Origin: an uncultured Pseudomonadota bacterium
GTDB taxonomy: Bacteria > Pseudomonadota > Alphaproteobacteria > RF32 > CAG-239
DNA length: 64,000 bases
Assembly: GCA_902785935.1 (NCBI GenBank)
Contig: CADAAN010000006.1
Location: forward strand, 4,309 to 68,308
Reading direction: 5' to 3'
The position numbers and the translations under genes were made by a program. Positions 15,958 through 61,613 of the stretch are shown here, one piece after another. Positions within the stretch are counted from its first letter, which is position 1; each line of letters starts with the position of its first letter. The notes beneath the pieces were generated by a model that worked only from the letters and a program-made list of their open reading frames with translations, had not been told where the DNA came from and ran no database searches.

Positions 15958-16074
15958 TTTCTTTTGATAAATAAACCCTCAAATTTTGAATGTCAAAGAA
16001 AAATCATCGTTTTTCAGATGTATTTTTAATTTTTTTGTTTGACTTTTATTTTAAAGTATGCCATAATCAAAAGC

Positions 16075-16236
16075 GTAACCAAAATGGTTATGGTGTTTAG
16101 ATAACACATTCGAGTTAAGGCTCCTTTGAAAGAGGAGTTGTTGATATAAGGCAATTTTTGCTCGAATAAGACAAACTGTAACTCGACAGTTATCTAGCTC
16201 CTCCATTTTGAGATTTTTCAAGATGGATTTTTTTTT
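16075..16236 (+). promoter_or_regulatory. type-1 conserved 5' leader (structured RNA with terminal attenuator hairpin) upstream of LRR gene
   Basis: Begins GTAACCAAAATGGTT 7 nt after promoter TTGACT-17-CATAAT (16039..16067); conserved boxes CTCCTT..AGGAG, GATATAAGG, TCGAATAAG, AGCTCCTCC; ends in hairpin ccattttg..caagatgg + T9. Confidence 0.7.
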
Positions 16237-16265
16237 CGATGGTTTAAAAAATAAGGAGAAAAAAT

Positions 16266-17324
16266 ATGAAGAAATATGTTTGGGTTTTTGGACTTATTTT
16301 AAGTTATAATGCACAAGCTTATGATTATAATGATTGTTTTGGTGCAAGCGGATGTCAGCCCTGTCCGAATAGTACGGACGGCAAATGTTTTTATGCTGTT
16401 GAAGGCAGCAAAATGACAATTTATGGCCCGACATCAACCGAACAAAATGCAGATGGCAGCTTAAAAGAAACAACATCGATTCCGCGTTATGCCTTTACCA
16501 ACAGCGATAATGCCAGCAATTTGCCGGAAAATATCACTTCTCTTGAAATAACAGGTAATATCACAACCGTTGAAGGTTATGCTTTTTGCTCTGCCCCTCT
16601 GACAAATGTACAATTTCCTGAGACACTTGAAACAATATCGGAATTGGCTTTTTGGAACAATAATTTATCACAAATCAATTTTCCTAATTCGCTTAAAAAT
16701 ATAGAAGAAGGTGCTTTTAATTGGAATCCATTTTCAGAAATTAATTTACCCGACGGATTAATGACGCTGGAGGGGTTAACAGGTGTTCCCCTGGGGCATG
16801 TTGTTATTCCGGATTCGATTGCAGAGGTTAAAGATGCGATTTTTTCTTCAAACTATCGTTTGCAATCATTGGTTGTCGGCGCAGACACAATGCTTGGCAA
16901 TATTTTTACCTACACAACAGGGGCTGTTAGTGTGCAATTTGATAAATTCAAGATGTTTTGCGCAGAAAATAACGGCTCATGCACAACAGCTTTGCAAAGT
17001 GCCGGTGCAACACAAGAACAAATTGCGCAAATACTGATAAGTTATACAAAAGATGACGCAACAGGCGTTTATCAAACAAGTGACGGAAAATATTATGCCG
17101 ATGTCAATTTGATGGCAAGACAAATGGCTTGCGAAAATAAGCAAAGCTGTGAAATTGCCAGTGCTGATATTCGGGCAGGTCGTCCTTTTGATATGAAAGG
17201 AAAATCTTACGCATCTGTCGATGATTTCATTCAAGGAAAATATATTCCAAAGCGTATCTATACCATCGATGAAGCCAATCATGTCGCGGGCAAGACAAAC
17301 ACTTTTACGATTCGGTATCGATAG
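16266..17324 (+). CDS. secreted BspA-type leucine-rich-repeat protein with conserved C-terminal tail
   Basis: Signal peptide MKKYVWVFGLILSYNAQA; Cys-rich N-module; LRR_5-like repeats (ITSLEITGNITTVEGYAF...); C-terminus PKRIYTIDEANHVAGKTNTFTIRYR shared with 4 paralogs. Confidence 0.8.
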   Translation: MKKYVWVFGLILSYNAQAYDYNDCFGASGCQPCPNSTDGKCFYAVEGSKMTIYGPTSTEQNADGSLKETTSIPRYAFTNSDNASNLPENITSLEITGNITTVEGYAFCSAPLTNVQFPETLETISELAFWNNNLSQINFPNSLKNIEEGAFNWNPFSEINLPDGLMTLEGLTGVPLGHVVIPDSIAEVKDAIFSSNYRLQSLVVGADTMLGNIFTYTTGAVSVQFDKFKMFCAENNGSCTTALQSAGATQEQIAQILISYTKDDATGVYQTSDGKYYADVNLMARQMACENKQSCEIASADIRAGRPFDMKGKSYASVDDFIQGKYIPKRIYTIDEANHVAGKTNTFTIRYR

Positions 17325-21493: not shown

Positions 21494-21676
21494 ATTTTTT
21501 CTCCATTATGCAAAATAAAAAACCGTTTAAGATAAACCAAAAACGGAGGAGCTAAACGAACTGCACTAAATCAGTTAAGCTTATTCGAGGTATTAACCCT
21601 TATATCACTTACTCCTCTCTAAAGGAGTATATTTTTAGTGCAAGTGTCGTTTAAACACCGCAACCATTTTGGTTAC
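21494..21676 (-). promoter_or_regulatory. type-1 conserved 5' leader with terminator-like hairpin
   Basis: Minus-sense GTAACCAAAATGGTTGCGGTGTTTAAAC...GATATAAGG...CTCGAATAAG...AGCTCCTCCGTTTTTGGTT; promoter TTGACA-17-TTAAAT (21683..21711) puts TSS at the GTAACC; terminal hairpin ccgttt..aaacgg + T6. Confidence 0.7.
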
Positions 21677-30540: not shown

Positions 30541-30828
30541 AATTTTTTCCCTTTTAAAGATGTTAATATAAAAAAGTTTAACCGCGCCTTTTTAAGTGCG
30601 GCGGGGAGTGAAGAAATCATGTAAACCTAAATGACTCTTGCAACCTTTAGAATAACTCTTGTACATCCTTTGCAAGCTCCCCAACCAAAACTTTGGGGAT
30701 AATCGGCATTTTATACAAAAACACCTTCAAAACAAACAGTGTTATCCGTCACTGAGGTTTACAAAAGCTTCTTCAAAGCTCCGCACCCAATACATAGGCA
30801 CTAAATGATAAGATTTCTCCCATCACTT
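30541..30828 (-). promoter_or_regulatory. type-2 conserved 5' leader (long structured RNA ending in attenuator hairpin)
   Basis: ~85% identical to 41674..41952 and 61231..61513; promoter TTGACA-17-TCTAAT (30836..30864); 3' end forms ccccgccgcac-ttaaaaa-ggcgcgg hairpin + T-rich run ~40 nt before ATG. Confidence 0.7.
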
Positions 30829-30946
30829 AAGATTTATTAGAACACGTTTTGATTTAATTGTCAAATAAAAAAGCAAAATTTTATGTACTTTTACTTTTTT
30901 TTGAAGTATAGTAATGCCAGTTGAGGAAATATTTGGAAAAAAATAA

Positions 30947-41673: not shown

Positions 41674-41952
41674 ATCTTTTCTCCAAAATTTATTAAACGA
41701 AAAAACCACTCTAAAATGAGCGGCGGGGAGTAAAAGAATCATGTAATGGAAAATGACTTCCGTAACCTTTAGGTCAAAACCTTGAACATACGCCACGGAC
41801 TCCCCAACCAAAATATCGGGGATAAGCATTGTTTTAAAATAAAAAAACAACACTAAAACAGCGTTATCTCTCACTGTCCATTACAAAAGCTCTTTTAAAG
41901 CCCCGCACCCTTTTCGGGTACTTGATAGAAAAAGCCAAAACCTTCCTATCTG
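41674..41952 (-). promoter_or_regulatory. type-2 conserved 5' leader with attenuator hairpin
   Basis: Promoter TTGACA-17-AATAAT (41959..41987); conserved blocks identical to other two copies; terminal hairpin ccgctc-atttta-gagtgg + T6. Confidence 0.7.
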
Positions 41953-42027
41953 ATTTATATTATTACATATCAAAAACATCTTGTCAAGAAATTTTAAAAT
42001 ATTTTAATACGTGATTTGGCTGTGAAC

Positions 42028-45986: not shown

Positions 45987-46177
45987 AACTTTTCTCCTAT
46001 TTTTCTTATTTACACTGTTGAAAAAATCACTTCAGAAGATATCCGAAGTGGGAGCTAGAAAACTGTATACATTCAGTCAGACTTATTCGACATTTCAAAA
46101 CGCTTATATCATCTACTCCCGGTAAAAGGAGCGATATGTATAAGGTGTTTTCTAGACACCGCAACCATTTTGGTTAC
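45987..46177 (-). promoter_or_regulatory. type-1 conserved 5' leader with terminator-like hairpin
   Basis: Minus-sense GTAACCAAAATGGTTGCGGTGTCTAGAAAACAC...GATATAAGC...TCGAATAAG...AGCTCC; promoter TTGACA-17-GAAAAT at 46184..46212; terminal hairpin cacttcgga..tgaagtg + T6. Confidence 0.65.
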
Positions 46178-52843: not shown

Positions 52844-53036
52844 TGGTTATACCTTTCTTTCATAAAAAAAATTCCGTTTTATATAACCAAAAACGGAGGA
52901 GCTAACTAACTGCCATTGTACAGCTTGCTTTATTCGCGCATCACTAAAATACCTTATATCAGCAACTCCTCATCAAGGAGCTATACAATGGATGTGTTAG
53001 TTAAACACCGCAACCATTTTGGTTACATCCTGATTA
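52844..53036 (-). promoter_or_regulatory. type-1 conserved 5' leader with terminator-like hairpin
   Basis: Minus-sense GTAACCAAAATGGTTGCGGTGTTTAACTAACAC...CTCCTTGATGAGGAG...GATATAAGG...GCGAATAAAG...AGCTCCTCCGTTTTTGGTT; promoter TTGACT-17-AATAAT at 53043..53071; terminal hairpin ccgttt..aaacgg + T8. Confidence 0.7.
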
Positions 53037-59994: not shown

Positions 59995-60609
59995 TTAGTA
60001 GAATTTCCAAGAAACCGTTGCTTGTTCGGTGCATGTAGCTACAGCACCTGTACCCGAAGCTCCGCCCATCGGATAAGGTTTACCCTCATCAGCACCTAGT
60101 ACTTTACCTTTGGCATAATTTGTACCGGTAGAAGCTTCAATTTCTACACCGATAAAACCCGAACCGGCACCCGAACCAAAATCAGCCGTTGCAAGTGCAA
60201 TGCAAGCCTCCTTAGGTAATCCTTTGTAACTGATTACAAAGGCTGTTGGTTTTGCATCACCAGTAATTGCTGTATTGACAGCAGAAATTGTATTTGAAGT
60301 AGCCATAGCTTCTAAAATTTGAACACTTCCTTTAAATGGGTTTGTTAAAGCGGCAGGAGATGTACCCATTACAGGCGGAACAATTCCTAAACTGACAGCT
60401 TGTGTCGCCAAGCCGGCGTAGTTACCCTGCTGTCCATACATTGTTCGGATGTTTGTCACAAGCATTGTGATTTGTTCCATTGTCGTGTTGAGTTTGTGTT
60501 TGAACATCGCTTTTGAATAGCCTGCCAAACCGCCGGCTGACAAAACACCGATAATCGCCAAAACACCAAGCATTTCAACCATTGAACGACCATTTTGATT
60601 ATTCTTCAT
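59995..60609 (-). CDS. type IV pilin-like protein
   Basis: MKNNQNG|RSMVEMLGVLAIIGVLSAGGLAGYSKAMF; second gene of a two-pilin operon. Confidence 0.65.
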   Translation of the reverse strand: MKNNQNGRSMVEMLGVLAIIGVLSAGGLAGYSKAMFKHKLNTTMEQITMLVTNIRTMYGQQGNYAGLATQAVSLGIVPPVMGTSPAALTNPFKGSVQILEAMATSNTISAVNTAITGDAKPTAFVISYKGLPKEACIALATADFGSGAGSGFIGVEIEASTGTNYAKGKVLGADEGKPYPMGGASGTGAVATCTEQATVSWKFY

Positions 60610-60648: not shown

Positions 60649-61230
60649 TTAATAGAACTTCCAAATGATTGTGTTTTTTGCACCTGCACAATCACTAACT
60701 GCATCAGCCATTTCATACGCTTTTCCCTCAGCACGTTTGTTTGCAATGCCTGTACCAATGACTATAGAAGATCCATCTGCTGAGGCTGCTGCAGTACCTG
60801 TTTTATCGGCTATAACACCTACAAAACCTGAACCTGCGCCTGAACCAAAGTCAGACGTTGCCAAAGCAATACAAGCTTCTGTTGGTAAACCATCAAAAGC
60901 GACTGTAAATGATTCATTGTTTGTACCTGTAGCAACAATATTAACATTACCCTTAAATGGGTTTGTAAGTGTGGCTCCACTACCCATAACAGCCGGAACA
61001 ACACCAAGACTTGATGCTTCTGTATTTGTTAATCCCGCATAATTTCCCTGTGTGCCGTACATTGTACGGATATTCGTCACAAGCATTGTGATTTGATCCA
61101 TGGTGGTATTGAGTTTGTGCTTGAACATGGCCTTTGAATAACCTGCCAAACCGCCGGCTGACAAAACACCGATGATGGCAAGTACGCCAAGCATTTCGAC
61201 CATACTACGGCCGTTTTCGTTATTTTTCAT
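60649..61230 (-). CDS. type IV pilin-like protein
   Basis: MKNNENG|RSMVEMLGVLAIIGVLSAGGLAGYSKAMF; N-terminal 60 aa nearly identical to 59995..60609. Confidence 0.65.
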   Translation of the reverse strand: MKNNENGRSMVEMLGVLAIIGVLSAGGLAGYSKAMFKHKLNTTMDQITMLVTNIRTMYGTQGNYAGLTNTEASSLGVVPAVMGSGATLTNPFKGNVNIVATGTNNESFTVAFDGLPTEACIALATSDFGSGAGSGFVGVIADKTGTAAASADGSSIVIGTGIANKRAEGKAYEMADAVSDCAGAKNTIIWKFY

Positions 61231-61513
61231 TTTTCAATTCCTTTTAAAAATTATTACGTAAAACCGCCCCTAAAAGAGCGGTCGGAGAGTTAAACAATCA
61301 TGGATTAGAAAATGACTCCGACAACCTTTAGATTAAAAATCCTGAACATTCGCTACCGGCTCCCCGACACTTTTCGGGGATAATGTGCTATATTTAAAAT
61401 AAAAAATAACACCACATCAATACAGTGTTATCCTCACTGTCTAATCCAAGAGTTGTTTAAAACTCCGCGCCCGTCTCAGGCACTTGATAGAAAAAGTCAC
61501 CTCTTTCTATCCG
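61231..61513 (-). promoter_or_regulatory. type-2 conserved 5' leader with attenuator hairpin
   Basis: Promoter TTGACA-17-TTAAAT (61520..61548) puts TSS at the leader 5' end; terminal hairpin ccgctc-ttttag-gggcgg + T-run ~35 nt before ATG. Confidence 0.7.
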
Positions 61514-61613
61514 ACCATTATTTAACAACACAAATGCTTAATTGTCAATTAAAAAAAACTATAACTTTAGTCATAGTTTTGCATTTGAACAATGTCTTCA
61601 TCAAATGCAGGCT

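Follow-up and report, generated by a model that had tools for sequence, protein, structure and literature searches.

A large family of folded 5' leader RNAs in Alphaproteobacteria of the gut and rumen, with a probable role in the control of genes for surface proteins, pilin-like proteins and small regulators

Results

Four copies of one leader in the window

The present study deals with a leader element found in a stretch of 64,000 nucleotides (nt) from an uncultured alphaproteobacterium of the CAG-239 lineage (GenBank assembly GCA_902785935.1, contig CADAAN010000006.1, positions 4,309 to 68,308 of the forward strand), and this whole stretch is called the window in what follows. Four copies of the leader, c1 to c4, are present in it (Table 1), each lying between a promoter and the ribosome-binding site (RBS) of a gene. 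The genes behind c1, c2 and c3 match the BspA-type leucine-rich repeat (LRR) model LRR_5. The gene behind c4 can be called pilin-like only, its prepilin N-terminal domain being below threshold (11.3 bits against a cut-off of 16.3). A preliminary description of this DNA had listed the same genes as two LRR genes, one surface-family gene and one pilin gene. The copies belong to a large family of folded 5' leader RNAs, which probably decide whether genes for surface proteins, pilin-like proteins and small regulators are read.

The mean column identity of c1–c4 is 74% across promoter, leader and RBS, with long invariant blocks common to all. The 15-mer GTAACCAAAATGGTT occurs exactly four times in the window; at up to two mismatches there are five matches against a chance expectation of 0.25, and none of 100 shuffles gave as many. 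The fifth match (GCAACCAAAATGGTT, one mismatch) lies inside a coding region at 7957–7971 (-), carries no leader features (covariance model R1, E = 0.85) and is not a leader. With filters off, R1 recovered only c1–c4 in the window, with 117–140 bits, the next match having 14 bits. The four copies with the same promoter, boxes and terminator that had been described earlier are therefore confirmed, and the covariance model gives no further copy in the window. All four promoters consist of TTGAC(T/A), 17 nt and a -10 hexamer, as had been stated, but the 6-nt gap that was said to follow is found in c2–c4, whereas in c1 it is 7 nt to the G of GTAACC. The start of c4, placed earlier at 53036, is at 53026. 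The ATG lies 20–46 nt past the terminator (29 nt from U-run to ATG in c1), which leaves no space for a separate promoter.

Size and distribution of the family

One genome per species was scanned with the 5' 22-mer of the leader. This gave 38 further true copies in three metagenome-assembled genomes (MAGs) of rumen Alphaproteobacteria, 30 of them in RGIG5118, and one chance match (L021; such numbers denote loci). Since the 22-mer pattern fixes the 5' hairpin by construction, metagenomes were scanned with an internal pattern independent of 5' end, box and terminator, and at least 120 stretches from rumen and human-gut assemblies were obtained. A covariance model built from the four window copies gave 104 matches (103 distinct sequences) in 89 loci, so that the leader extends through rumen and human-gut assemblies, far outside local paralogues. 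Through the covariance model three more copies with a different 5' hairpin were added in RGIG5118, and this one MAG carries at least 33 copies. The gut loci have housekeeping genes syntenic with the rumen MAG loci, with proteins 60–88% identical, and all loci belong to one alphaproteobacterial lineage. There were no matches in the viral contigs scanned, and a phage origin was rejected on this ground.

Standalone units were found in tandem in L042, L116, L071, L097 and L119, each with its own promoter and terminator and with no open reading frame (ORF) behind. The arrays have 2–4 complete units without an ORF between them, and the last unit precedes a small XRE gene. A decayed relative of c4 was seen in L159 at 1223–1354 (-); its core is identical from helix P3 on, and a deletion has removed the -35 box and all that follows it, up to and including the P2 5' strand.

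The dominant structure, Fold A

RNAalifold on the four window copies gave long-range helices in which the variable bases differ completely between copies and the complementarity is kept. The 104-sequence alignment was then evaluated for this structure, Fold A, to whose model it had been fitted. Standard pairs make up 93.8% of the cells, against 68.6% in column shuffles and 42–48% with slid partners. Changes on both sides were found in 37 of the 42 pairs, and such cells number 1,039 against 274 in shuffles. In a duplex test that is independent of column placement, each helix strand was compared with its own partner and with the partners of other units; the median rank was 0.000 for P1 and P2, with 88–93% of the units in the best 5% (93% for P2). 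RNAalifold recovers P0–P5 with a covariation term of -13. Covariation, which had been proposed earlier as a check on the structure, is thus massive. Across the helices G.U pairs outnumber A.C by 401 to 46, which shows that selection acts on the RNA of this strand. Fold A is a covariation-defined domain of about 130 nt, and the approximately 115 nt after P0 form a closed three-way junction.

P0, a hairpin at the predicted +1, has a wholly different sequence in the gut clades (GCAGCCGG-GAGA-CCGGUUGU and others), and many of its loops are GAGA or GAAA-like. P1 follows with no linker; at its base GG(U/A)G pairs with CUCC, and then come about nine unit-specific pairs. In DNA letters, the 5' strand of P1 is made up of GGTGT and the variable bases that follow, and its partner, ...GTT-variable-AGCTCC, lies about 100 nt farther downstream. 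P2 has 8 unit-specific pairs. Its 5' strand is the variable stretch in front of CTCCTT, and its 3' strand is flanked by the conserved CUG and CAG (CTG and CAG in DNA letters). Both P1 and P2 appear in the minimum-energy fold of c1. P4 has changes on both sides in 4/4 pairs and P5 in 3/4. A closing G.U pair for P5 was unsupported (GU:29, other:72), and a G-C pair with C97 plus one bulged base fits better.

The conserved boxes of the preliminary description are real, but they are strands of long-range helices, and two of them, GATATAAG and CGAATAA, face each other across a single internal loop. GGTGT...ACAC, listed there among the boxes, is not the main structure but a local alternative hairpin (H1, see below), and the dominant fold pairs GGTGT otherwise, in P1. 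The internal loop reads GAnAUAA(G)/(C)GAAUAA, and its bases hardly vary among the 42 copies found by their 5' end alone. At the level of sequence this loop carries the UAA/GAN signature (UAA facing GAN, with Watson-Crick flanks). Read as 5'-GAn-A-UAA-G / 5'-C-GAA-UAA, it holds two such signatures facing each other, each Watson-Crick-closed. The UAA/GAN module is known for long-range A-minor docking, and the resemblance, which is one of sequence, points to a compact tertiary fold. The consensus of the module is ccUAAg/uGAagg (PMC2615604; module of Lee, Gutell & Russell 2006), and the back-to-back double module matched here is not described in PMC2615604.

Promoters and terminators

The promoter geometry holds across the family. 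In 95/104 units there is a -35/-10 pair that agrees at 8 or more of the 12 positions, as compared to 16/104 for a control anchored 14 nt upstream, and in 92 of the 95 it leaves 6–7 nt before the first P0 base. The arrangement is that of a sigma-70 promoter (hexamers 16–18 nt apart, start 6–8 nt past the -10), and +1 is predicted from it.

An intrinsic terminator, with a stable hairpin and an immediate U-run, starts 0–3 nt after the P1/CUCC box in about 100 of the 104 units. It is part of the full-length minimum-energy fold, together with P0 and Fold A, in 97/97 units analysed. The hairpins of these units have 8–12 paired bases in the 5' arm and energies of -5.5 to -17.7 kcal/mol. The script used for terminators required at least 4 U; the window copies have 6–9, and the hairpin with U-run that had been noted at the end of all four copies is indeed there. 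As the terminator is in the lowest-energy fold right after P1, the default product would be a terminated RNA of about 160 nt.

In six copies an insert of about 85 nt, GC-rich and palindromic, lies between terminator and RBS (L020 at 3985–4085 (-), also L010, L017, L024, L027 and L039). It reads GGTTTGGGTTAATATTTGCCACCCC...GCGCCAAAGGCGC...GGGGAGG and looks like a repetitive extragenic palindrome or a miniature inverted-repeat transposable element. An Rfam E-value scan of the L020 insert gave no credible match.

Pairing of the 5' end with the terminator arm

It had also been proposed that the leader switches by pairing its 5' end (AACCAAAAUGG) with the terminator 5' arm. The complementarity noted in three copies was found in c1, c2 and c4, while c3, by reading, has it at only 7/9 positions. 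In transcripts cut before the terminator 3' arm, the 5' end unzips P0, pairs with the terminator 5' arm and extends P1, on which the new pairing would stack directly. This is the minimum-energy fold of the cut transcript in c1 and c4, where CAAAAUGG is the element on which the model depends, and not in c2 and c3. The switch is thus feasible, but it does not describe the family. The pairing was found in 23/97 units, all of them members of the AU-rich-P0 clade. None of the gut clades has it, their P0 being GC-rich and offering no partner for the terminator 5' arm, and neither do the class-b terminators of the same genomes. Terminator 5' arms pair with their own leaders at -7.6 and with other leaders at -7.2 kcal/mol (median rank 0.49), which gives no signal of a unit-specific antiterminator. 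Where the P0 loop is altered (CCGGUUGG, CCAGCAAGG), the terminator arm is unrelated to it and has not changed in step. Because it occurs in one clade, lacks unit specificity and shows uncoupled changes of loop and arm, the switch can be at most a clade-specific add-on. As a universal mechanism it is very improbable, though the pairing may serve as a second antiterminator in the AU-rich clade of the window.

Alternative pairings and Fold B

Two further pairings, both covarying across the family, compete with Fold A. In H1, GG(U/A)GU pairs with AC(A/U)CC just downstream (16093–16107 in c1, with ACAC), and H1 and P1 are mutually exclusive. Its pair 36-50 is UA in 74 sequences and AU in 11; where GGAG stands in place of GGUG, the partner is ACUC in place of ACAC. 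In P1', the P3 3' arm (G/A)(A/G)GGAGU pairs with GCUCC and the next 1–3 bases, which are the first bases of the terminator stem (box GCUCCUC in c1). Its pair 124-221 is GC in 49, AU in 40 and GU in 4, with 46 cells changed on both sides, and pair 123-222 is GC in 67 and AU in 10. On a plain MAFFT alignment of the 42 copies, mostly from one MAG, P1' gave AU:22, GC:12, GU:6 and 2 mismatches, and RNAalifold itself picked the P1' fold there. When P1' is forced, the RNA adopts Fold B, made up of P0, H1, P1', P4/P5 and a CUG/CAG hairpin, with the terminator shortened at its base. In this model the 5' half of the RNA would be a strand-by-strand clamp on Fold B, with one element of that fold held by each of three strands, namely the 5' arm of P3 and the 5' strands of P2 and P1.

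Link to translation and genes served

The Shine-Dalgarno (SD) sequence of the gut clades reads either GGAGCU or GGAGUU, and their box reads either AGCUCC or AACUCC. When the two bases before the box CUCC are tabulated against the two after the SD GGAG, AA-UU occurs 18 times, AG-CU 16 times, AG-UU 7 times and AA-CU never. Energies of the box-SD duplex, own against cross, are -8.5 and -8.1 kcal/mol, which is not significant overall, so that the association is in the dinucleotide table only. SD-box pairing appears in 53/93 minimum-energy folds when the P1 5' strand is blocked and in 29/93 when it is free. The clade of the window has no such extended complementarity. A further complementarity was observed in L045 (1071–1203 (-)) and other units of the gut clades, between the U-run of the terminator, UUUUGUUUU, and AAAACAAAA, which immediately precedes the SD. 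In read-through transcripts of the gut clades this pairing, together with that of box and SD, would close a junction over two hairpins.

Of 138 unique units, 118 are followed on the same strand by an ORF of 60 codons or more that has an SD in front and begins no farther than about 330 nt away, and the remainder are mostly tandem or cut-off. The 87 distinct downstream proteins include LRR_5 (41), LRR_8 (12), HTH_31 (13, which other helix-turn-helix (HTH) models match too) and RHS repeats (3), and pilin-like genes are also found. The small XRE genes behind leaders encode 75–103 amino acids and are monocistronic. There are no transporter or enzyme genes among these 87 proteins, so that a lifestyle or signalling regulon is favoured over a metabolite sensor. 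Two loci of one MAG, L016 (5038–6022 (-)) and L025 (2655–3634 (+)), encode proteins with near-identical N-termini behind leaders of class a and class b, respectively (by terminator and P3). This suggests that leaders and coding regions may recombine.

Table 1. Positions of leader features in the window and of tandem arrays in other loci; c1–c4 run from the predicted +1 through the last base of the U-run
Feature	Positions	Strand	Description
c1 leader	16075-16236	+	found by 15-mer and covariance model
c1 promoter	16039-16067	+	-35 TTGACT 16039-16044, 17-nt spacer, -10 CATAAT 16062-16067
c1 P0	16075-16091	+	hairpin GUAACCA/UGGUUAU at predicted +1; changes on both sides in 7/7 pairs; 99% of cells paired
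c1 P1 5' strand	16092-16105	+	GGUGUUUAGAUAAC; 12 pairs, 9 with changes on both sides, 96.7% paired
c1 P2 5' strand	16110-16117	+	UCGAGUUA; changes on both sides in 8/8 pairs
c1 P3 hairpin	16120-16138	+	GCUCCUUU-GAA-AGAGGAGU; CUCCU/AGGAG
c1 P4-P5 arm	16139-16173	+	P4 is 16139-16142 with 16170-16173; P5 hairpin 16151-16161
c1 internal loop	16143-16150 / 16162-16169	+	GAUAUAAG / UCGAAUAA
c1 3' strands	16176-16201	+	CUG 16176-16178; P2 3' strand 16179-16186; CAG and P1 3' strand GUUAUCUAGCUCC 16187-16201
c1 3' box	16196-16204	+	AGCUCCUCC; P1 base, anti-SD-like element and start of terminator
c1 terminator	16202-16236	+	UCCAUUUUGAG...UUCAAGAUGGA then U9; -11.2 kcal/mol
c1 SD and start	16255-16258; ATG 16266	+	SD GGAG; BspA-type LRR gene 16266-17324, LRR_5 E = 6e-21
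c2 leader	21512-21676	-	+1 at 21676; U-run ends 21512; covariance model 117 bits
c2 promoter	21711-21706; 21688-21683	-	TTGACA; TTAAAT
c2 downstream gene	21493-20594	-	LRR gene, LRR_5
c3 leader	46021-46177	-	+1 at 46177; class-b terminator CACUUCGGA...UCUGAAGUG ends 46021; 137 bits
c3 promoter	46212-46207; 46189-46184	-	TTGACA; GAAAAT
c3 downstream gene	45986-45087	-	LRR gene, LRR_5
c4 leader	52863-53026	-	+1 at 53026; terminator ends 52863; 136 bits
c4 promoter	53061-53056; 53038-53033	-	TTGACT; AATAAT
c4 downstream gene	52843-52253	-	pilin-like gene; prepilin N-terminal domain below threshold
Tandem array	L042 389-1297	-	4 units about 255 nt apart
Tandem array	L116 507-1159	-	3 units
Tandem array	L097 4119-4515	+	complete leader-like units
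Tandem array	L071 160-560	+	complete leader-like units

Discussion

The explanation that seems to us the more probable one is that the element is a cis-acting attenuator or riboswitch-like leader, which toggles between two folds by means of a putative effector. A conserved structured domain in the 5' untranslated region with covariation, as expected of a riboswitch, is present, and an expression platform is coupled to it, through the terminator 0–3 nt past P1 and the box-SD association. Transcription would start at the first base of P0 from the sigma-70-type promoter. Fold A with the terminator would be the default, lowest-energy state, in which the RNA ends after about 160 nt and the gene is off. 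Since no promoter fits between terminator and gene, expression needs read-through. In Fold B, GGNGU would be locked in H1, the AGGAGU arm of P3 would move to GCUCC and the first 1–3 bases of the terminator to form P1', and CUG and CAG would form a small hairpin. This would shorten the base of the terminator and keep the CUCC box off the SD sequence. An effector, either a small molecule or an RNA-binding protein, could shift the balance between the two folds, and the balance would set the level of read-through and, in the clades with XRE genes, the access of the ribosome. The geometry of the promoters, the pairings of both folds, the terminators and the association with particular genes are shown by the data; we infer that the folds are functional states, that Fold B is the one that is 'on', and that an effector exists.

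Several observations weigh against this explanation. H1 and P1' covary, but the energy of Fold B is on average about 12 kcal/mol higher than that of Fold A with the terminator, so that kinetic trapping or a stabilising effector is needed. Trapping is conceivable because the two local hairpins, H1 and CUG/CAG, are the first to form. The overlap between P1' and the terminator is just 1–3 nt, and the antiterminator effect of P1' is for this reason something we infer. The covariation of H1 and P1' may reflect few evolutionary events, as it follows differences between clades and classes, and the alignment behind the counts was fitted to Fold A. The comparison of terminator 5' arms with own and other leaders detected no unit-specific antiterminator. 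The standalone tandem units without an ORF in L042, L116, L071, L097 and L119 suit a trans-acting or decoy RNA at least as well. Finally, the starts and ends of the transcripts are predictions from the DNA letters.

A more specific form of the attenuator explanation is possible and is put forward tentatively: a new riboswitch class whose ligand is a signalling molecule, such as a cyclic dinucleotide or a cue that comes from the host or the community. With 30 or more copies in each genome, such a riboswitch would switch a whole 'surfaceome' of adhesins, pilins and RHS proteins together with small XRE regulators in Alphaproteobacteria of the gut and rumen, by an unusual two-fold design with the 5' half as a clamp on an antiterminator junction.

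The element could instead work chiefly as a small RNA in trans or as a decoy, such as a sponge that takes up an RNA-binding regulator. It would be a stable product of about 160 nt between a 5' hairpin and a terminator, and the same protein would bind the gene leaders in a secondary role. Each unit carries a promoter and a terminator of its own, the arrays of L042, L116, L097 and L071 are free of ORFs, the terminator is kept in all full-length minimum-energy folds, and there is no family-wide antiterminator made of RNA alone. The pseudo-symmetric conserved internal loop could also suit a dimeric protein. However, most unique units precede an SD-bearing ORF on the same strand, ahead of which another promoter has no space; the box-SD covariation ties the RNA to its own gene; and no candidate protein was found. 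We therefore regard a mainly trans-acting role as unlikely, although the tandem arrays suggest that the terminated RNA may also act in trans or titrate a factor.

It could also be that the leader does not switch at all. It would then be a constitutive folded 5' cap, providing mRNA stability and promoter insulation, with a leaky terminator that fixes a low expression of costly surface proteins. A hairpin exactly at +1 is the classic arrangement for 5'-end protection, and P0 fits it. Fold A with the terminator is the minimum-energy state of every unit, and the gene context shows none of the transporters and enzymes that go with a ligand. Such a leader leaves unexplained about 20 invariant unpaired bases, the maintenance of H1 and P1' and the extended box-SD complementarity, and we consider it quite unlikely. 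Practically no credence can be given to a DNA-level element (operator palindrome, recombination site, or mobile promoter cassette spread by duplication), which would account for the AACC-N5-GGTT inverted repeat at +1, the many copies per genome and the leader-gene recombination suggested by L016 and L025, because the G.U excess speaks against a palindrome or operator, helix strands 100 nt apart are unit-specific, no terminal repeats or transposase genes were seen, and the viral contigs scanned gave no match.

Two candidate reading frames were also rejected. A leader peptide beginning ATG GTT GCG GTG TTT... at +9 is not conserved, as P0 differs entirely in other clades. A mini-ORF, NUG-AUA-UAA, follows the SD-like GAGGAG, but its 'start' falls on the end of P4, where the bases covary freely (UCG in L010 and L028).

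The preferred explanation, a terminator-coupled leader that changes between two folds, has known counterparts. Riboswitches of the c-di-GMP-I (GEMM) type resemble it in having a promoter-proximal conserved covarying domain followed by an intrinsic terminator, in numbering dozens of copies per genome, and in preceding pilin, adhesin-like and transcription-factor genes and not metabolic genes. The present leader differs in that it matches neither their model nor any other in Rfam, its terminator abuts P1 without overlap, its competing strands are in the 5' half, it has standalone tandem copies, and any ligand is hypothetical. Protein-dependent attenuation leaders (PyrR sites, ANTAR targets) and decoy RNAs such as EutX and Rli55 share with it the logic of leader hairpin and terminator and the many targets per genome, and free-standing copies could titrate a regulator as the EutX/Rli55-type decoys do. 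In contrast to ANTAR targets, no paired hexaloop hairpins were seen on reading the leader sequences, and no cognate protein gene was found next to the leader units. Nor does it match the PyrR model: in an Rfam E-value scan of c1, PyrR was the best match with 21.7 bits against a gathering threshold of 54 (E = 0.79).

An Rfam 15 scan at gathering thresholds gave two tRNAs only in the window and one tRNA only in 15 diverse metagenome loci, so that no Rfam 15 family matches the leader, a point which the preliminary description had left to be checked. No description of the leader family was found by full-text searching of the literature, and Weinberg 2017 has nothing relevant to it. The microbiome survey of Fremin & Bhatt 2021 gives 100 unnamed candidate RNAs near HTH-XRE genes, which may include this leader; the box sequences were not found in the 200 supplementary files searched, out of the 408 of that study. 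In kind, the element is a terminator-coupled structured leader, and the family is new and previously uncatalogued. Its design is also new in the terminator that abuts P1, in the three interchangeable GGAG and CUCC partners, in the competing strands of the 5' half, in the double UAA/GAN loop and in the standalone arrays.

With at least 33 copies in one MAG, the leader would be among the most highly multiplied cis-regulatory RNAs of any genome. Its host lineage is uncultured and common in the human gut and the rumen, and the leader precedes the genes most likely to mediate contact with host or partner, namely those for BspA-type LRR, pilin-like and RHS proteins. It thus gives a handle on the co-regulation of a large and variable surface-protein family. 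The RNA, validated by covariation, is ready for a ligand or protein search, and the covariance model can be used for annotating these genomes.

The window carries a second conserved leader, called type-2, of about 300 nt, at ~30541–30850 (-), ~41875–41990 and upstream (-), and ~61231–61530 (-). No RNA was reported at these places by the Rfam gathering scan of the window. It is promoter-proximal as well and stands before members of the same gene families, namely two LRR genes and a pilin-like one, whereas its sequence is unrelated and about twice as long, and model R1 does not detect it; that the two leaders share gene families but not sequence had been described earlier. Pilin-like paralogues of the c4 gene lie at 59995–60609 (-) and 60649–61230 (-), with N-termini 45–78% identical to that of the c4 gene, and the second of them sits behind a type-2 leader. 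The shared boxes of type-2 include CTATCAAGTRCC, GCGGAGYTTT, CAGTGAsGGATAACACTGT, ATTATCCCC..GGGGAGC and GAGTCATTT.

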